Shown here: positions 12,893 through 23,086 of the stretch, one piece after another
How the letters are laid out: every line of letters starts with the position of its first letter
Position numbering within the stretch: the stretch's first letter is position 1
Virus record (IMG/VR): IMGVR_UViG_2548876935_000008
Reading direction: 5' to 3' (one strand)
Origin: a virus
Taxonomy: Duplodnaviria > Heunggongvirae > Uroviricota > Caudoviricetes
DNA length: 24,534 nt
Position numbers and translations under genes: made by a program
The notes under the pieces: model-generated
Told to the model about the DNA's origin: nothing
What the model saw: the letters and a program-made list of their open reading frames with translations, nothing else
Database searches by the model: none

Positions 12893-13558
12893 TCAAAGCT
12901 CTGAGTCTACAGGCTCATGATAAAGGTTTACAGGGTAGTGTATAACCTCATAATTAAGTTGACTAACAGTGTGAGTATGTTGACTGTAAAAAACCAATGG
13001 GTTTCTCTTACAAGGAGTTATCGAGATAGACTTACAAGCATGAATTCTTGGAGCCGATTTATCTAAATGAGCCTTCCACTTAGTCATCATTTCATTACAT
13101 TTTTTATTACGCGTATATATAATTAACCCACCACTTGCACTGTCTACAGTACCAGTGCTATATCGCTCAGTGAGTTGTGCATACCCTTTAAATAAATAAC
13201 TATATGAACCAGTGTGTTTTTTGGCCTCGCCATGCCAAGTAAATCTATTCAACTTTATTGTTATATCACAATGACCTCGTTGATTATTTTCATGATATGC
13301 TTCAATTCCCATATCTTTATTTTTTATATTTGCCAGTAAAATTAAAGTAAGCTGATCTTCTGTTAAATCAAAATTCAATTTATTTGAATTTTCCTCAATT
13401 GCCTGTACAGCAGAATCAAGCTCAATTCTTACAAACTGTTTGAAGTTCTCATACGACTGGAGAGCAAACCTAACGCGAGTAATAGAAGCATTGATACGCT
13501 GAAGAAAAATATCATTATCAATTTCAGCTAAACTCATTGGTGCAGACATTTTTAACAT
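12893..13558 (-). CDS. Hypothetical protein, cassette gene 3 (221 aa); possible PD-(D/E)xK-like nuclease motif
   Basis: AT-rich ORF; ATG overlaps the upstream stop (TGATG). Contains ...GHCDITIKLNRFTWHGEAKKH..., a D-x12-E-A-K arrangement reminiscent of restriction-endonuclease-fold active sites (inference only). Confidence 0.55.
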   Translation of the reverse strand: MLKMSAPMSLAEIDNDIFLQRINASITRVRFALQSYENFKQFVRIELDSAVQAIEENSNKLNFDLTEDQLTLILLANIKNKDMGIEAYHENNQRGHCDITIKLNRFTWHGEAKKHTGSYSYLFKGYAQLTERYSTGTVDSASGGLIIYTRNKKCNEMMTKWKAHLDKSAPRIHACKSISITPCKRNPLVFYSQHTHTVSQLNYEVIHYPVNLYHEPVDSEL

Positions 13559-13992
13559 CAGACAATATCCTTTAATTTAGATTCATCTAATGTAAAAAAA
13601 GGAAAGACGAAGGACTTATAGTCATACATAATCTCCCCTGTAAATGGGTTTACTAAAGATTGATTAATTTCAGCCTCTATAACATCTTCTAACTCAAGCT
13701 CAATAGGATCATGAAAATCATCAATAAACCAATAATTGAGTTTTAAAAACTCAACCTTTGGACTACAAAGAATTTGTATAGCTGGGTACACAACCTGCTC
13801 ATATGCTTCAGGTTGTATACATCCTTTATAACCATTAACGATACTAAATAAATCTTTATAACTCAGAGCTATATTAGGCGATTTCTTTGCTCTCACACCA
13901 ATTTCATCATACAAATAGCAAGCTAGCGCCCCTATATCAGGGCGCTCTGCACATATTTCTTTGATGATCTGGGGCATATCACCATCCTTCAT
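13558..13992 (-). CDS. Hypothetical acidic protein, cassette gene 2 (about 144 aa)
   Basis: ORF 13558..14004 as tracked uses a TTG; the in-frame ATG at 13992 is preceded by GGAG at good spacing. AT-rich; no recognisable motif. Confidence 0.55.
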   Translation of the reverse strand: MKDGDMPQIIKEICAERPDIGALACYLYDEIGVRAKKSPNIALSYKDLFSIVNGYKGCIQPEAYEQVVYPAIQILCSPKVEFLKLNYWFIDDFHDPIELELEDVIEAEINQSLVNPFTGEIMYDYKSFVFPFFTLDESKLKDIV

Positions 13993-14004
13993 TGCTGACT
14001 CCAA

Positions 14005-15111
14005 TTATAATATCAGCTTTGTGAGGGTTTCGAAATCATCTTTGGATATACATTTGCTTAATATAGCATAATTGACAGGAGAGCACCCACTACCACCTAA
14101 ATGTCTGCGTAATGTTCCTGGAATGATAAGCTCTACACTATCCGCCAATTGCAATTTTGGATTATTCCTATCTACTCTAATTCCAATACGATATAAACCA
14201 ATATTACCTACAGCTTTAATGCCCTCTTTATTAAACAGATCATCACGCAAGTCTTTCTTAGCCACATTTTTCTTTTCCTTATGAGTGGTTCCCTCATAAG
14301 TTAAAAATGACAAATCGAACACCTTATAACTTAAACTTGAATATGGCATTACATTTTGCTTGAAAATTGGCTCAATTAATGGATAAAAATCCTTTTCCGA
14401 TGAATTAAATTGATAACCTGCGCAATTATATAACTCACGAATAAAATTCGTTTTCGCAAAAACGATATTATCACCAACAACATTACCATTAGTATCAATT
14501 AATACATGGATTTTATTTGAAGCTGAATCTAATATACACACATCAAAACACTGACGTTTTTCTTTTCTCTTCGCAATGATTTCATCAAACTGTTTGTATG
14601 CTGCTAACTTTGACGGAGGGACTTTCTCTCTTACAACCAGCTCCCTGATAGATGAAAATACCAAAATAGACTGAGTATTTTGCTTAGAGTAATTAACAAG
14701 CTCAAGTTGATTTTTAATAGCATGCTGTAATTGAACATCATCAACAATCGTTTCGACTAATGATGTTGGTTGCTTCATCATATTCCATTGGAGAGCATAT
14801 CTATCATCAAGTAATTTAATTACTTGACTATCTACAGACAAACTAAATATTGCTTTTTCACCATAAACAACCTGCCCAAAGACTAAATCATTTACACTTG
14901 CAATGATTTTGTCAAATTTTTGCCTATCTTTCTTTTTAAAATCAATGAGGCTTTCTAGTATTTTGTCGTTTGTTGCTTCACGCCCTCTACCTGTAGGTAG
15001 CCCTAAAGAAGCAATAATTGGTCTGGCGATATGCCACGTAAAACGTTCAGTTAAGGCTAAGATCGACTTTAACTCAAAGTCAGAAAGCACCACTGGGACA
15101 CCACTTGTCAT
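14005..15111 (-). CDS. Hypothetical protein, cassette gene 1 (368 aa)
   Basis: Tracked ORF begins at a GTG (15120); the in-frame ATG at 15111 is preceded by AGGTG 6 nt upstream. AT-rich; no Walker A/P-loop seen; no recognised family. Confidence 0.6.
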   Translation of the reverse strand: MTSGVPVVLSDFELKSILALTERFTWHIARPIIASLGLPTGRGREATNDKILESLIDFKKKDRQKFDKIIASVNDLVFGQVVYGEKAIFSLSVDSQVIKLLDDRYALQWNMMKQPTSLVETIVDDVQLQHAIKNQLELVNYSKQNTQSILVFSSIRELVVREKVPPSKLAAYKQFDEIIAKRKEKRQCFDVCILDSASNKIHVLIDTNGNVVGDNIVFAKTNFIRELYNCAGYQFNSSEKDFYPLIEPIFKQNVMPYSSLSYKVFDLSFLTYEGTTHKEKKNVAKKDLRDDLFNKEGIKAVGNIGLYRIGIRVDRNNPKLQLADSVELIIPGTLRRHLGGSGCSPVNYAILSKCISKDDFETLTKLIL

Positions 15112-15271
15112 AACATGCACCTAGTCAACCCAAAAGCAATTGAAAATCGCTCTTGTCTTAATTTTTTCCATCAATATCTAACAAATTACCTTAATGTTGA
15201 AAAAGTTTGCAAGCCATTTGCGTCTAAAAAGTGACTTGACTCAATGTGTTACAAAGCTTAGCGAGCGCGCG

Positions 15272-15290
15272 CTCGTATCCCCGCCACGCC
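15272..15290 (-). other. Candidate cos site (cohesive-end region) of the P2/186-like phage
   Basis: Minus strand reads GGCGTGGCGGGGATACGAG. From memory, P2 and 186 cohesive ends begin GGCGAGGCGGGGAAAGCAC and GGCGTGGCGGGGAAAGCAT. Orientation relative to Q is as in P2. Adjacent perfect palindrome GCGAGCGCGCGCTCG at 15261..15275. Confidence 0.45.
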
Positions 15291-15339
15291 TGCCCGCTTT
15301 ATGTAGTAGTTTTCATGCAGGTGCATGATCTACGCAAAA

Positions 15340-15359
15340 GCCCGCCAGTTCTGGCGGGC
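15340..15359 (-). terminator. Rho-independent terminator downstream of the membrane-protein operon
   Basis: GCCCGCCAG-tt-CTGGCGGGC perfect stem; on the minus strand it is followed by TTTTGCG, just past the stop of the 280-aa ORF. Confidence 0.55.
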
Positions 15360-15407
15360 CTTAGCAAAAACGATCCTCAAACGATCATGCGATCTCATGC
15401 AGCATAG

Positions 15408-16250
15408 TCATGCACGATCATTTGACTCAGCATCTGCTGCACGCTTGCTGCGCGAAGATGCACTTTTACTACCAATCTTTCGACAGTTCTTTCTATCCCT
15501 GGCTTCATTTTCTTTAAATTTGTTATATGTCTCAGTATCAAAAAACGAAATTGTTTCAACCTCATCTTTTGGTATGAGCACACGGAAATCTTCGATATTA
15601 AGCCGAGACATTCCACTTATCACACCACTATCAAGATAATGTTGGTGATAGTTAGTCGTGATACTAATCGTTAGATCATCTTTATCCCGATATCCGCTTA
15701 ACATCGGGAGAAGTTCAAGGTGTTCTGAAAGCCCGTTTTCTAACGCCGGACAAGTAACAAGACCAACATAGATTTTGCGAGACGACAGAGTTGCTATGAT
15801 CGGAAACTGTCTTGCAGACGCTTCCATGAGTAATGATTCGAAAGCGTTATTACCCACAGCTTTAGCTAAGGCATCCCAGCGACGATCTCCACGTGATGTG
15901 CGTAACTTATTTCCAAAACCTGAAATCGCAGCGAGAACAATTGAAATCATAACCCATGCTATCTGTTTGATTTCATTTATTCTTTGAAGTTTGTCTTTCG
16001 ATGAAGACAACATGCCATTAAAACTGTCAGGTGTTAGATTCAAGGCATTAGCCAGCCAACGAAACCCTCCGCTGACGTTCAAAATAAAGGTGAAAAAACC
16101 GCCAAGGAGAAAAAAAACGATACCCCAGGCAGCCACAAAAAAATAAGCGTCCCAGCCGTTGGAACGCTTATATCGGTATCTTGTTGAAAGTGATAGGTTT
16201 ACATAAATAAAACCACTAACCAAAATCACTGCTAAAAGTAATGTTGCCAT
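15408..16250 (-). CDS. Hypothetical membrane protein (280 aa; about three N-terminal transmembrane helices plus a cytoplasmic domain)
   Basis: Hydrophobic segments MATLLLAVILVSGFIYV, FFVAAWGIVFFLLGGFFTFIL and IAWVMISIVLAAISGF; soluble C-terminal half of unknown fold. ATG overlaps the stop of the upstream 71-aa gene (TAATG). AT-rich. Confidence 0.6.
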   Translation of the reverse strand: MATLLLAVILVSGFIYVNLSLSTRYRYKRSNGWDAYFFVAAWGIVFFLLGGFFTFILNVSGGFRWLANALNLTPDSFNGMLSSSKDKLQRINEIKQIAWVMISIVLAAISGFGNKLRTSRGDRRWDALAKAVGNNAFESLLMEASARQFPIIATLSSRKIYVGLVTCPALENGLSEHLELLPMLSGYRDKDDLTISITTNYHQHYLDSGVISGMSRLNIEDFRVLIPKDEVETISFFDTETYNKFKENEARDRKNCRKIGSKSASSRSKRAADAESNDRA

Positions 16251-16465
16251 TATCTGGTTCTATTAGTTTTCTCTTTTACAGTGCTCGTTTTGATGCCTTC
16301 AAGCTTATCCATCTGTGCCTTGATGGCATCCATTGCTCTTTTGTTAGACAAGTCTACGGACACAAAACCATCTTTACTAAGATTGAGTTTGTCCTGGTTC
16401 TCTTTAAGAACCCTTGCCAGACGTTCAACTGGGTTACCCAGGCTAAATGCGGCGATGCTTGACAT
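16250..16465 (-). CDS. Hypothetical small protein (71 aa), translationally coupled to the membrane protein
   Basis: ATG at 16465 preceded by a strong Shine-Dalgarno (AAGGGGGAG); hydrophilic, Lys-rich; no recognised motif. Confidence 0.5.
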   Translation of the reverse strand: MSSIAAFSLGNPVERLARVLKENQDKLNLSKDGFVSVDLSNKRAMDAIKAQMDKLEGIKTSTVKEKTNRTR

Positions 16466-16735
16466 AACTCCCCCTTTTCACATGGCGCGGAAGTCTACAC
16501 TCCGACGCCTACAACCTCAACAGATTATCTTTAAAATTTAGACAACAATATCATCTGTTGATTTCGTTACTTAAACTTAAGTTCAATGCGCTCGATCATG
16601 CAAGTGGTTTCTTAAGAACTGTTAATTTCCTGGCATATATAGTGGTTAAGGTAACAAATTGACACTAACGCCTCGCATAGCTCGTTGTTCAACCTTGCTG
16701 ACGCCAGAAGCAAGTTCAGACGCCAGCAACGTTTC

Positions 16736-16969
16736 TTAATGCAGCCAGCTGTCGTCTTCCCACACCTTCTGCATAATTTTCATCACTTGCTTCCTTTCTT
16801 CGTCCAGTTGCAGTCCAGTCAGTTCCACACCGTTAGAGCTACCTTTGCGGATGCGAATTACCGTTTTTGGATATAGGGGGCGCAGATTGCGGTAAAGCTC
16901 GGATTCAAGGGCGTCCAGGGTAGACTGGCTAATCTTCTGCTCTTTATCGATCATTATTTCAATGCGCAT
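16736..16969 (-). CDS. dinI: DinI-family protein (DNA-damage-inducible protein I-like)
   Basis: ORF 16736..17041; start chosen at ATG 16969 (preceded by GAGGTGA). MRIEIMIDKEQKISQSTLDALESELYRNLRPLYPKTVIRIRKGSSNGVELTGLQLDEERKQVMKIMQKVWEDDSW resembles E. coli DinI (MRIEVTI...AL..EL.RR...FPD....V.......L.V.G...E.K..I..ILQE.WE..D.W). Confidence 0.7.
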   Translation of the reverse strand: MRIEIMIDKEQKISQSTLDALESELYRNLRPLYPKTVIRIRKGSSNGVELTGLQLDEERKQVMKIMQKVWEDDSWLH

Positions 16970-16979
16970 AAAAGTCACC

Positions 16980-17168
16980 TCAGCTGATGACATCCATTGA
17001 GCGGTTGTATTCGTGGGTTCTGATTTTTGCCATGAGTTCATCTGTCAGTTCAGAAACCCACTGCAAAGCCAGCCCCTTCTCTTCATCACTACACTCACTA
17101 GCCGCTACAAGCTTAAGAAAAAAATCAATGCGCTGGAGCTTCAAAGACTCCAAAAAATAGTCCTGCAT
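16980..17168 (-). CDS. Small SOS-regulated protein, putative Tum-like antirepressor (62 aa)
   Basis: ORF 16980..17270; start chosen at ATG 17168 (MQDYFLESLKLQ...), preceded by AGGAGGAAAG. Sits directly downstream of a LexA box and upstream of a DinI-like gene, the arrangement of the 186 tum operon. Function inferred from context only. Confidence 0.45.
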   Translation of the reverse strand: MQDYFLESLKLQRIDFFLKLVAASECSDEEKGLALQWVSELTDELMAKIRTHEYNRSMDVIS

Positions 17169-17211
17169 CTTTCCTCCTATGACACCACAAGCAATACTGT
17201 ATGTACAACCA

Positions 17212-17227
17212 CTGTTTATATTTACAG
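17212..17227. promoter_or_regulatory. LexA box (SOS operator), CTGT-N8-ACAG, in the promoter of the tum/dinI-like operon
   Basis: Seen directly: CTGTTTATATTTACAG, a perfect match to the CTGT-N8-ACAG consensus, 44-59 bp upstream of the ATG at 17168 and overlapping AT-rich -10-like hexamers. A partial second site (CTGTATGTACAACCAC) abuts it at 17197..17212. Confidence 0.6.
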
Positions 17228-17321
17228 TATATAATAATCTTACTGATGTAAAACGTTTTTTTACGTTCATCAGCCTGATATGCCTGGTATTATTAAGAGC
17301 ACGAATTGTTAACCCGCGTAA

Positions 17322-19736
17322 TTAATACAGGTTTCGCCACTTATCATCTTCCTGCAAACGCTGGTTCCGATAGAAGATACGCAGGCCTGCTCCTGACGGA
17401 ATACTGCCGCCGCGAAGGAGTAAATCGACCTCTTTCTCGCTGCCATCAAATCCTCTGGACTTCAGTTCATAGACGAGCTGCTGTCGCTGATGGTCTGTAA
17501 TTCGCTGTTTGTAGTCTTTACGCCGTTTCGGTTTCACCAGGCGTAACCTTGCAGCCAGTTCCCGGCGCTCTTTTTTGCTCATACTGTGCAGGTAATCGTG
17601 CAACTCCTTGTCATCCATGCGGGTAATGTCCGTCCTGGTATCCCCATCAGCTGATTTGTCTTTCCCTTGTTGGTTCAAATTTTCAGCAAGGGGACAGTTA
17701 TTGCCACGAGTCCAAGGGGCGCAAGCGCCCTGGTCGGCTGCCGCCTCCTGAACGTCAACGGCCTTACGAACTATTTTCCACTTCACTGCATGAGTGCAGA
17801 TCTTGCCCTCTGCAATGGGTGACCAGATGCCATAAATACGAATACCGTGATCACCATAGGCGGTCGGCTCTTCGTTGATTTCATAAGCGGTTCTGATCAA
17901 GTGATATTTGCGGGGAACCAGTACGCCGCCCTGCTTCATGATGTAGGTGGCAAAACAACCAGCATCAGCAGCAGCCAGGATGGCATCAAGGCGCGGGTTA
18001 TCCAGTACCGGCGCACCTGCTTTTTTGTCACCCTGTTGCCTTGCCGCCTGACCAGCCAGCAATCGCAGTTCACGGTAAGCCTGACGCCCCGGAATGCCAA
18101 AGAAGCGGAATTGCTGAACACGATGCAGAGACGCCCAGGCATTAACGTATTCAGCGTTATCACGCAGGGATTTACCCGTTTCCTTACTGATCTCGCCAGC
18201 CAGACCACGCCCGTCAATATTCTTACTGATATATTTCGCAATGTAGCTTGTCGGCGTTCCTTTGCGCGGGTTTATCAGCTCAGACTTAAAGCGTGGCCCC
18301 GTGTTATTGCCCAGCTCCTCGCGGTCTTCACGGATGGCAAACTTACGCAACAATGCAGTAATGGCGCGGCGGTCTTTTTTGCGCATGAAACACAACAGGT
18401 GCCAGTGAACTGTGCCGTCATGATGCGGCTCAGCCACCCGCACGCCATACCAGCGCAACCCGGCTTTGTGCATAGCCTTACGAAATGCAGCAAACATGCC
18501 GACCAGATAATCGCTGCTTTGTCTTACTGTCGCGTTGGTCCAGGTCGGGTTTGGCCTACCGTTATTTAGCGTGGAATGGAAACGTGACGGACAAGTGATG
18601 GTGTAGAAAACGGCGCAGTCACCACGCATTTCCGCGATAAGCTCCAGGCCTTTAACACAGGCCATCATCTCGTTGCGGCGATGCGCCGGGTTGCTGCTGC
18701 TGGCGTTTACCACATCCTCCATGTTCAGCGTGTCGCCGTCTTCGTTCACCAGTTCATGAGAACGGAAAAACTCCAGCGACTTACGGCGCTGCTCACGTTT
18801 ATGCATCACGGCTTCATAGCTGACATAGGGAGATGCTTTTTTGCTGACCAGGCAGACAGCACGCAACTGCTCTTCCCGCCATTCGCAACGCATCTTCCAT
18901 AATTTCCGATACCACCAGTCGGCGCACAGCATACGCGCCAGCGACCCCGGAATGAGTTCATAGGGCACGGGTTTACGGCGGTTTCTTTTCCGGCGGAGTT
19001 GCTCAAACGCAGGCGGTATGACATCCAGTCGCAGGGTTTCTGCTGCCACCTTTTCCCATGTCTTGCGGATTTCTTCTGGCTTAACGTCATCGGTGGCATA
19101 CAAATCACCACAAGCGGCATCAAGGCACATGCTCATATGCGCAGCGACAAGGATAGACAGGCGCTTCACCTGATCCTGACTCATTTCAGGCAGGATAAGC
19201 AGGCCATCCAGCCCTTCATGGCTTGCCATAAAGCGAAAAGAAGTGGATAGCTGACAGTCGCGGACATGCTCCAGTCGTTCCAGACATGGCTTAATCGTCT
19301 CACGCAAATAGCGGGAATAAGCCTTTGGCCTGCCCAGGCTGCTGAAATATTCAATACGTTGCATCAGCGGCTTGCTGATATGGGAAGGCTGGGCATTGAC
19401 GTCAGCCAGAATGACCATGTCTGGATTAAAACGCTGCTGCTCATGCGCCAGCTTTGCCCTGCTAATGAGCTTATCCTGCTCCATTTCGCGCTGGACAGGA
19501 TCACGGGATTCATTAAAGAAATAACGCTCCCAGACCTGATCACTCAGTGCCTCGCGGCGCAGTTGTTCCTGCTCGTTATCGGCAGCGTACAGAGTGATCA
19601 GGTTTGAAAGTGCAGAAACCGGCGCAACTTCCGCCGGGTCCTGATAAGGGTTAATAGCCTTTTTCGGGCTGTTCCATGAGAATGCTGCGGCGACCTCGTT
19701 AAAGCCGCTGCAGTTGTTCATATCATCATGGCTCAT
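17322..19736 (-). CDS. Replication initiation protein (P2 gpA-like rolling-circle endonuclease)
   Basis: 804 aa; position between the early-region genes and the cos-proximal cargo as in P2/186. Contains an HUH-type stretch ([10 protein letters not shown]). Stop of the upstream dam gene overlaps the start. Confidence 0.8.
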
Positions 19737-20590
19737 GCACGCACTCCGTATACGGCTGAACTATCCACGCCACGCGAAGGATCAAATCCCACCCAGCAGC
19801 GCGGCCCGGAAACAGCGATGATTTCAGTTGCAGATTTACTCTCACCAGCTGCTACGCCGATGCTGCGTTTTGCCTTGATGTAGTGGTGAGTAAAATTGCG
19901 ATACAGCGAACGGATCAGGGATGTGTCACTGTTAGAAACAATGACCGGATGTCCTTCTGATGACCGATGTTCAAGCACAGATGCCAGGCGATACTGGTCA
20001 TCTTCAGTGAAGCCATCAGTGTGATAGCCGGAAAACGTACCGTCATAAGGCGGATCGCAATACACAACATCCCCCGCGTGCAACATCGCCAGCGTTTCAT
20101 CGAAGCTGGCGCAGATAAACGTTGCCCGCTGGGCTTTCTCTGCAAATGCGCGAATTTCTTTTTCAGGGAAATACGGATTTTTATAATTACCGTAGGGAAT
20201 GTTGAAATGCCCGCTCTTGTTATAGCGACATAACCCACGGTAACCATGTCGATTGAGATACAGGAAATATACCGCTTTCATGAAATTAGTAATTTCAGTT
20301 GAGTAGTTAAACTCCTGCCTTATGTTGTAATAAGCCACCTCCCTGTTTGCTTCCTCAAATAAAACTCTGGCGCGAGATATAAATAATTCACAATCAGCGG
20401 CAACCTTTTTATAGAGGTTGATTAAATCAGGATTAATATCCGCAACCAGATAGCTGGGGTAATCCGTTTCCATCATCACTGCACAGGAACCCGCGAAAGG
20501 TTCAACCAGTCGCAGGCCAGCAGGAAGGTGTTTTTTCAGTTCTGGCATAATGGCGGTTTTATTTCCCGCCCATTTCAGGATGGTGCTCAT
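19733..20590 (-). CDS. dam: DNA adenine methyltransferase (Dam-like, N6-adenine MTase)
   Basis: 285 aa; motif I ([11 protein letters not shown]) and catalytic motif IV DPPY (VYCDPPYDG) are both visible in the translation. Confidence 0.85.
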
Positions 20591-22510: not shown

Positions 22511-22516
22511 GTGACC

Positions 22517-23086
22517 ATGAATTTGGAGAAAGGCGGACGAGGCGCCATAGAGCGCATGGTAGAAGCTTATGGATTCAAGACTCGACAGGCGTTGTGCGAT
22601 CATTTAGGAATCTCTAAAAGTACACTCGCCACACGCTACATGCGTGACTCATTCCCAGCAGAATGGGTAATCCAGTGCGCCCTTGAAACAGGCACCTCGC
22701 TTAATTGGCTCACAACCGGGCATGGTTCAAAGCAAACTTCAGGTAATACAAATACTATGGAAGTTGCTAAATATGTATTATCTGATGGGGCCTTGTGTGA
22801 AGACGGTTTTTATATTTTCGATAGAGAATTTCTACCGTCGGCATTCAAGAATCTTTTTGTAATCACAGATAATAATTCTGAATTTATTTGTGATAAGGAA
22901 TTTGATGATATACGTGATGGTAAATGGGTAATAAGTATTGATGGCGAAATAACGATCCGTGACATTACTCGTTTACCCGGTGGAAGAATCTTCGTCGAGG
23001 GTGGAAACAGAGCCTTCGAATGTAAGATAGAAGACATTGAAATAATTGGTAAAATTATAAGTTTAACAGTCAAGTATGTTAAATAA
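22517..23086 (+). CDS. cI: CI-like immunity repressor (186 CI family)
   Basis: Tracked ORF starts at a GTG (22511); the ATG at 22517 (MNLEKGG...) is preceded by GGAG. About 189 aa, close to 186 CI in length; contains ...YGF......L..H..IS.S.L..RY.R.......V.QCALETG..L.WL.TG.G, resembling the 186 CI N-terminal DNA-binding domain. Confidence 0.7.
   Translation: MNLEKGGRGAIERMVEAYGFKTRQALCDHLGISKSTLATRYMRDSFPAEWVIQCALETGTSLNWLTTGHGSKQTSGNTNTMEVAKYVLSDGALCEDGFYIFDREFLPSAFKNLFVITDNNSEFICDKEFDDIRDGKWVISIDGEITIRDITRLPGGRIFVEGGNRAFECKIEDIEIIGKIISLTVKYVK

Follow-up and report, generated by a model that had tools for sequence, protein, structure and literature searches.

In coliphage 186 the antirepressor Tum sequesters the immunity repressor CI once promoter p95 is derepressed from LexA. 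The 186 record places the p95 -10 element, TACTGT, inside the LexA site of this SOS-dependent promoter. According to Lemire et al. (2011), a stop codon divides tum of the phages Fels-2 and PSP3 into two genes, the upstream one being the antirepressor, and antirepressor activity is reported for the upstream gene of PSP3. The PSP3 record annotates tumA ('UV induction of prophage') and tumB, and downstream of Fels-2 STM2728 lies a DinI gene with a noted similarity to PSP3 TumB. A literature search for TumA/TumB returned unrelated matches only. Genetic data come from the prophage DuoHS of E. coli HS. In the Phollow study (Nat Microbiol 2025) a markerless Δtum mutant was made in which the start and stop codons of tum are fused. 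Both Δtum and lexA(Ind-) abolished mitomycin C-induced lysis and virion production of DuoHS. Gifsy prophages of Salmonella carry antirepressor operons as well, and terminator-like palindromes precede their LexA boxes (Lemire et al. 2011). Colicin operators have been described as binding two LexA dimers, resulting in tight repression.

Here we analyzed a viral DNA stretch of 24,534 nucleotides (IMG/VR record IMGVR_UViG_2548876935_000008), hereafter called the window. Its tum module is the already described split tum operon of Fels-2-like phages. The gene order gpA, LexA operator, small antirepressor ORF and DinI gene is that of Fels-2 (Salmonella LT2; STM2728 / STM2726.1) and PSP3 (tumA / tumB). 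An initial annotation of the sequence had pointed to a likeness to the 186 tum operon. This likeness holds, but it was under-read, as the arrangement is the known split tum of Fels-2 and PSP3 and not only an analogy.

The window is a Fels-2/186-like prophage

The window is a Fels-2/186-like (P2-family) prophage. Its 186-like immunity region contains an Apl-like ORF and a CP76-type CII besides CI; on the minus strand a Dam methylase gene and gene A follow. The window CI matches PF07022 (E 2.8e-33) and PF16452 (E 2.7e-27) and is 33% identical to 186 CI. The tum module lies directly 3' of gene A, where coliphage 186 has its SOS operon (p95, LexA site, tum, orf97). Along the minus strand gene A is followed by a hairpin, the promoter, the LexA box, a ribosome-binding site, a 62-aa ORF and, after 10 nt, the DinI gene (Table 1). 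Five cargo ORFs further downstream had no match in PADLOC, Pfam and NCBIfam searches. The downstream 280-aa ORF was considered as a counterpart of 186 Orf97 and turned out to be unrelated on comparison, as did STM2726 of Fels-2; no orf97 homologue was found in the window.

The set of 41 homologous loci used for comparison contains the window itself, Fels-2, three distant metagenomic members and loci of 36 species taken from the genome collection. An alignment of closer relatives was used for the collection; a more diverse alignment had no stretch that was conserved enough. In nearly all of these loci the C-terminus of gpA is encoded 5' of the Tum homologue. Among 5426 complete E. coli genomes, 1125 (about 21%) carry the 565-nt module, almost always in one copy, and it is annotated there as 'DinI-like family protein' and 'hypothetical protein'. 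Thus, there is an annotation gap: the module is common in E. coli, yet the Tum ORF is still a "hypothetical protein".

Table 1. Features of the tum module and associated prophage genes in the window.
Feature	Position	Strand	Basis
GC-rich stem-loop without U-tract, just 3' of tumB	16695..16729	minus	RNA fold
tumB, 77 aa, DinI family	16736..16969	minus	PF06183
tum (tumA), 62 aa	16980..17168	minus	homology to N-terminal half of 186 Tum, dN/dS
Shine-Dalgarno sequence AGGAGG of tum, 4 nt before ATG	17173..17178	minus	read from sequence
Putative LexA box 2, CAGTGGTTGTACATACAGTA	17195..17214; core GTGG-N8-ACAG 17212..17197	minus	aligned with pesticin/colicin operators, conservation
Putative LexA (SOS) box 1, TACTGTAAATATAAACAGTG	17210..17229; core CTGT-N8-ACAG 17227..17212	minus	pattern, consensus, conservation across loci
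Putative sigma-70 promoter, TTTACA-N17-TACTGT	17224..17252; -35 17252..17247, -10 17229..17224	minus	conservation, 186 annotation
Hairpin CTGATGAACGT-AAAAAA-ACGTTTTACATCAG, between gene A and tum promoter, overlaps -35	17243..17273	minus	RNA fold
Replication gene A, 804 aa	17322..19736	minus	PF05840 Phage_GPA, E 1.3e-126
cI, 186-type immunity repressor, presumed Tum target	22511..23086	plus	PF07022 + PF16452

The small ORF is a predicted antirepressor

The small ORF reads from the ATG at 17168 through 62 codons to a TGA stop (16982..16980). Its coding potential was assessed with 33 distinct 62-codon sequences from different species. The median pairwise dN/dS was 0.07 (maximum 0.39), compared to 1.3 and 2.3 in the two shifted frames, and the variation was mostly found at third codon positions. 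The ORF is a real gene under purifying selection, and not the non-coding, unconserved stretch that the initial annotation had named as the finding that would speak against its reading. Gene callers often start the ORF farther upstream, giving proteins of 84-101 aa. We consider this extension non-coding, because the stretch holds the promoter and operator and its indels are not multiples of three.

All 484 database relatives of the 62-aa protein are short stand-alone proteins from Enterobacterales that lack a functional name. An exhaustive profile search yielded 86 representative clusters, nearly all of 50-100 aa. A protein of 1205 aa that matched the Tum profile 10 times was rejected; it is an NTPase with HEAT-like repeats and the matches are spurious. 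Pfam and NCBIfam hold no family for the 62-aa Tum, which is phrog_698 ("unknown function") in PHROGs and a "hypothetical protein" in RefSeq. Among solved structures no sequence match was found for the Tum family. AlphaFold2 predicts a two-helix hairpin with helices at residues 2-23 and 28-61 (pLDDT 88).

With Fels-2 STM2728 the protein shares 98.4% identity. In contrast, the antirepressor parts of 186 and the window are too diverged for BLASTP, which gave no alignment of the 62-aa protein with 186 Tum. Using hhalign, an alignment restricted to close relatives (identity of at least 81% for all members) reached a probability of only 20% against 186 Tum. This was superseded by a diverse family profile, built from members of 29-73% identity out of the exhaustive representative search. 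The diverse profile aligned residues 1-45 with residues 1-45 of the profile of the N-terminal half of 186 Tum (probability 98%, E 2.7e-13). Based on this profile, the 62-aa ORF and the N-terminal half of 186 Tum are homologues. The ORF corresponds to the Fels-2 half of "split tum" and is predicted to encode the antirepressor.

The DinI-family gene is optional

The second gene, tumB, begins at the ATG at 16969, 10 nt after the tum stop codon, and ends at 16736. Its Shine-Dalgarno sequence GAGGTGA (16981..16975) lies within the gap and overlaps the tum stop codon. The 77-aa product matches the Pfam DinI family (PF06183) with an E-value of 6.6e-23 and 81.3 bits (cut-off 24.2), and the E. coli DinI structure 1GHH with an E-value of 2.7e-6. 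The DinI-family gene with its own ribosome-binding site behind a 10-nt gap, as initially annotated, is therefore present. The score against the NCBIfam DinI equivalog (42.7 bits) is below the cut-off of 111, so tumB is a paralogue and not the host DinI. TumB is 41% identical to residues 71-145 of 186 Tum, the C-terminal half. Since the 62-aa ORF resembles the N-terminal half, the two ORFs are the two halves of 186 Tum, which bears out the proposed mirror of the 186 operon.

A DinI match was found 3' of the Tum homologue in 23 of the 41 loci (partial or truncated in three). In the other 18, including distant homologues, no DinI match was detected within the flank of ~1.5 kb. In some distant members other cargo, or else ogr and the portal gene, comes directly after the Tum homologue. 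Constant across the loci are gene A upstream and the LexA-controlled small ORF, and the distant homologues keep the order gpA, LexA box and tum even where DinI is missing. A constant small ORF and LexA box, together with an optional DinI gene, agree with an effector role of the small protein and an accessory role of DinI.

The roles might be reversed, with the DinI-like protein being the real effector via RecA and the 62-aa ORF an accessory or a leader peptide. Indeed, 186 Tum fuses both parts, the 186 record annotates shorter DinI-only products as induction modulators, and the DinI gene is well conserved where it is present. However, 18 loci have no DinI match within the flank, whereas the small ORF and the LexA box are constant, and the antirepressor activity that Lemire et al. 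(2011) report for PSP3 belongs to the upstream gene. The DuoHS deletion separates the two genes. Primer NHR24, read as its reverse complement (GTGGTGTCATAGGAGGAAAGATG, then TGA), matches window positions 17166..17188 at the start of the 62-aa ORF. Positions 16960..16982, which cover the stop of this ORF and the start of the DinI gene, are matched by the 3' part of primer NHR28 (TGAGGTGACTTTTATGCGCATTG). The DuoHS Δtum mutation removes only the 62-aa ORF and, as primer NHR28 shows, leaves the DinI start intact, yet induction is abolished. A DinI-like effector is thus highly unlikely, and the upstream ORF is preferred as the antirepressor gene. TumB is predicted to have an accessory role, modulating the SOS response and RecA filaments, to which it would bind judging from its family membership.

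A LexA box overlaps the putative tum promoter

A pattern scan located CTGTTTATATTTACAG at 17212..17227 as the sole CTGT-N8-ACAG in the whole window. This is the textbook SOS box of the initial annotation, and its distance of 44-59 bp to the ATG at 17168 of the small ORF was confirmed. A single pattern count alone is weak evidence for a LexA box; 0.34 copies are expected by chance per window, and 29 of 100 shuffles contained at least one copy. Judged by these numbers, the motif could be a palindrome that arose by chance in AT-rich intergenic DNA, in which case the operon would not be regulated by LexA. Boxes were also scored by counting mismatches to the 20-mer LexA consensus TACTGTATATATATACAGTA. 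The 20-mer at 17210..17229 has 3 mismatches (17/20 positions agree), and none of 100 shuffles contained a match as good. A CTG-N10-CAG box is located 5' of the Tum homologue in 39 of the 41 loci, including homologues with just 30-45% protein identity. It occupies the same place, overlapping the -10, in many genera, whereas spacer and leader vary. One of the two loci lacking box 1 is a truncated contig; in the other the first box is degenerate and the second is good. The three distant homologues have one box each, located at -33 to -39. The 20-mer match and the conservation in 39/41 homologous loci show that the site is non-random. Moreover, the 186 record lists the homologous site as the LexA site of a promoter that depends on SOS, and lexA(Ind-) blocks induction in the HS relative. 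A chance palindrome is barely credible in view of these data. The box at 17210..17229 is best described as a putative LexA (SOS) operator of the Enterobacterales type.

The promoter was proposed from conservation and from the 186 p95 annotation. In most of the 41 loci TTTACA is found 17 nt 5' of TACTGT. A generic promoter scan of 16400-17500 called no promoter; the proposed one was missed because its -10 matches only 3 of 6 positions. An alignment of 22 upstream regions showed that the -35, TATACTGT, AAACAGTGGATATA-ATACAGT and the ribosome-binding site, conserved as ATAGGAGGGAA-ATG, are kept, while spacer and leader vary. The site had been called excellent, and AGGAGG indeed precedes the ATG at 17168. 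With the -10 of the putative promoter inside the box, as in the annotated layout of 186 p95, the placement of box 1 fits promoter occlusion by bound LexA.

Two hairpins flank the module. The upstream one had a folding energy of -18.4 kcal/mol (z = -2.4; RNA fold of 17236-17325) and is probably an insulating terminator against read-through from the early operon. The stem-loop 3' of tumB folded with -30.3 kcal/mol (z = -1.8; RNA fold of 16660-16745). Likeness to related phages stops at about 16738 or about 16665, and by this comparison the stem-loop marks the right border of the conserved module. It may act as a partial terminator, in the position of 186 t95a.

A second LexA box forms a colicin-type double operator

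Box 1 and a second box, GTGGTTGTACATACAG, overlap by one base. Taken alone, the second box makes a poor LexA site, as it departs from the 20-mer consensus at 6 positions. A plasmid search with the 53-nt operator region gave matches on small bacteriocin plasmids, and the operator aligns column for column with sequences just 5' of pesticin (pPCP1) and a pore-forming colicin. A strict dual box, with TG and CAG at the exact offset, was found in 22 of the 41 loci. The Fels-2-like clade keeps the ACAG of box 2 almost unchanged, and the leader 3' of it is variable. The exact offset and the near-invariant ACAG argue that the second box is maintained by selection. Judged by these alignments, it is part of a colicin-type overlapping double SOS operator and not a leftover. 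The initial annotation had noted a partial second box directly abutting the first. The second box is real, but it completes a full colicin-type operator in which the boxes share one base.

Unlike the Fels-2-type tum promoters, those of 186, PSP3 and more distant homologues have a single LexA box. Both boxes would be occupied by LexA, and repression would be tighter than in 186. If both boxes act, Fels-2-type prophages would have a tighter, later induction threshold at higher damage. A colicin-like double LexA operator on Fels-2-type tum promoters appears to be undescribed in the literature examined.

Tum type follows the DNA-binding domain of CI

Phages with a Tum 84-100% identical to that of the window have CIs which, bar a few close pairs, are only 33-62% identical mutually. 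Hence, a nearly invariant Tum (84-100%) is paired with at least seven CI types. Ten CIs of phages with a Fels-2-type Tum were compared to seven CIs of phages with a 186-type Tum by median pairwise identity. For the N-terminal HTH domain, identity was 70% within the Fels-2-type and 73% within the 186-type group and 41% between them. For the C-terminal domain, the values were 34%, 62% and 31%, respectively. The C-terminal domains of the Fels-2-type group diverge from each other as much as from 186 CI. All CI positions that are invariant within the groups and different between them are located in the N-terminal domain. The discriminating segment reads FPA(E/D)W vs (I/V/L)SYD(F/L), for example RDSFPAEW vs RGAISYDF in the 186 group.

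In this small, phylogenetically structured sample, Tum type appears to go with the part of CI that binds DNA rather than with the oligomerisation domain. Such a pattern is compatible with an antirepressor that docks on the N-terminal domain and thereby keeps CI off the DNA, and it suggests such docking for Tum. Alternatively, the N-terminal domain of CI might be conserved because the operators are conserved. If Tum docks on the N-terminal domain, one Tum could cross-induce co-resident Fels-2-like prophages with differing CIs. That Tum type is linked to the N-terminal domain of CI appears to be undescribed in the literature examined; this lead is modest and testable. Double operator and Tum-CI link bear on the setting of the induction threshold and on cross-talk between P2-like prophages. 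The joint reading, in which the double operator sets a tighter or later threshold and Tum docks on the DNA-binding domain of CI, is tentative, and we give it slightly less than an even chance.

A model for SOS induction of the prophage

We are confident that the module, a split tum operon, controls the SOS induction of a Fels-2-like prophage, and that Tum would sequester CI without cleavage. In the lysogen, host LexA would be bound to the double operator, with box 1 covering the -10 and box 2 the promoter start region, and keep the two genes silent. The upstream hairpin would insulate the tum promoter from the early operon. Upon DNA damage, active RecA would cause LexA to cleave itself and the tum promoter would fire. 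Tum and TumB would then be made, probably by coupled translation. By analogy to the described systems, the 62-aa helical-hairpin Tum would bind the 186-type CI and block its binding to the operators, so that the lytic promoter is released; CI would be sequestered and not cleaved. The DinI-like TumB would be dispensable for the switch and probably modulates the activity of RecA filaments. This analysis itself showed the anatomy of the sequence, the homologies, the purifying selection acting on the ORF and the conservation of the operator. The need for tum and a cleavable LexA, and the action of the antirepressor on CI, are taken from published near-identical or homologous modules. The inferred steps of the model are that LexA occupies both boxes, that translation is coupled and that the hairpins act as terminators. 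Action of Tum on the window's own CI is likewise inferred, this CI being only 39-56% identical to CIs of phages with the same Tum.

A lambda-style prophage would be induced by RecA-stimulated self-cleavage of CI, and the LexA-controlled genes would then be an SOS-responsive accessory (moron) cassette. The C-terminal region of CI does give a sub-threshold match to Peptidase_S24 (E 0.0081, 16.3 bits). This score is, however, below the 23.3-bit cut-off, and the same region is identified as PF16452, the C-terminal domain of 186-type CIs, with an E-value of 2.7e-27. Furthermore, the whole immunity region is 186-like, as judged from the CI (33% identical to 186 CI) and the CP76-type CII, and Δtum alone blocks induction in the HS relative. 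Self-cleavage of CI is extremely unlikely on these grounds. The initial annotation had expected SOS induction through an antirepressor rather than repressor cleavage; the 186-type CI with its Peptidase_S24 score below cut-off, and the block of induction by Δtum and lexA(Ind-) in HS, are in line with this. For the window prophage, the antirepressor model predicts induction by DNA damage via LexA and an antirepressor, reversibly and without cleavage of CI.

Comparison with described systems

The Gifsy-1/2/3 prophages of Salmonella resemble the window in having LexA-repressed operons with a DinI homologue and a small antirepressor (gfoA/gftA). Both have a terminator-like palindrome in front. The Gifsy repressors are not cleaved, and neither would be the CI of the window. 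In the Gifsy operons, however, the order is reversed (dinI first), and antirepressors and repressors are of unrelated lambdoid types.

The colicin and pesticin operators, for example the pst promoter of pPCP1 and those of colicin plasmids, share with the window two boxes that have one base in common and the junction ACAGTGG. The operator of ~35 nt aligns with that of the window at 82-86% identity. The -10 lies upstream of box 1 in colicins and inside box 1 in the window, and the genes under the colicin/pesticin operators are unrelated to those of the window. The resemblance may reflect common descent or convergence on the requirements of LexA.

The 186 p95-tum-orf97 operon shares with the window its position after gene A, a -10 TACTGT inside the LexA box and a 186-type CI. 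In 186 the N-terminal antirepressor part and the C-terminal DinI part are fused in a Tum of 146 aa with internal starts, whereas the window has a stop codon and a 10-nt gap between them. 186 has one LexA box and the window two overlapping ones. PSP3 TumA forms a third, very divergent subfamily and has a single LexA box.

The tum gene of DuoHS (ECHS_RS04495) is the experimentally tested orthologue, to which the deletion primers connect the window by exact matches at ORF start and stop. DuoHS resides in a different host strain and is a different prophage copy, and its likeness to the window is known here from the tum primers. Fels-2 differs from the window 3' of tumB, where it has a 243-aa ORF and the window has ORFs of 71 aa and 280 aa, and in its CI, to which the window CI is only 39-41% identical. 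The DinI protein of Fels-2 is 100% identical to that of the window over 77 aa, and Fels-2 has the same double operator.

Assignment of the Tum start codon and specificity of the Tum profile

Forms of Tum, the 62-aa predicted antirepressor, that are extended upstream to 84-101 aa are frequent among gene-caller annotations, and the ORF listing of the window likewise holds a 96-aa form. The extension spans the putative promoter and both LexA boxes of the double SOS operator. Homologous sequences are separated here by insertions and deletions whose lengths are not divisible by three, and the 84-101 aa forms were therefore ruled out as an annotation artefact. An exhaustive search with the Tum profile also returned P0283, a 1205-aa NTPase with ~10 HEAT-like repeats (AIDALVKLIADSNV...), at E 2.7e-9. 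This score is the sum of repeat matches; P0283 was rejected as a false positive and should be left out of any Tum family model.

Features of the window considered in this section
Feature	Position	Strand	Remarks
Five cargo ORFs (71, 280, 371, 148 and 221 aa)	12893..16465	minus	between tumB and portal gene Q
Upstream extension of Tum	17169..17270	minus
96-aa form of Tum ORF	start 17270	minus
D12-class DNA adenine methylase gene	19733..20590	minus	PF02086, E 4e-76
CI ORF	22511..23086	plus	mechanical call; start GTG 22511; reads VTMNLEKGG...

The CI repressor and genes flanking the tum module

The CI of the window was compared with those of loci L049-L065, from phages carrying Fels-2-type or 186-type Tum. 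Among phages sharing the same Tum, the C-terminal domains of CI diverge from one another as much as they do from 186 CI; the N-terminal HTH domains remain specific to the Tum type. As for the start of CI, ATG 22517, two codons after the mechanically called GTG, is more likely.

The region of the five ORFs appears to correspond to the slot in which P2-like phages carry variable cargo, and these ORFs are therefore candidate anti-phage genes. Searches of Pfam, NCBIfam and PADLOC gave no match for any of the five, and each belongs to a PHROG of unknown function. A relative from E. coli retains the pair of 71-aa and 280-aa ORFs, but an AAA ATPase and an HNH endonuclease come next, in place of the ORFs that follow the pair in the window. 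The methylase gene lies directly upstream of the replication gene A, with a 4-nt overlap. In Fels-2, a D12-class methylase gene is placed against gene A in the same way.
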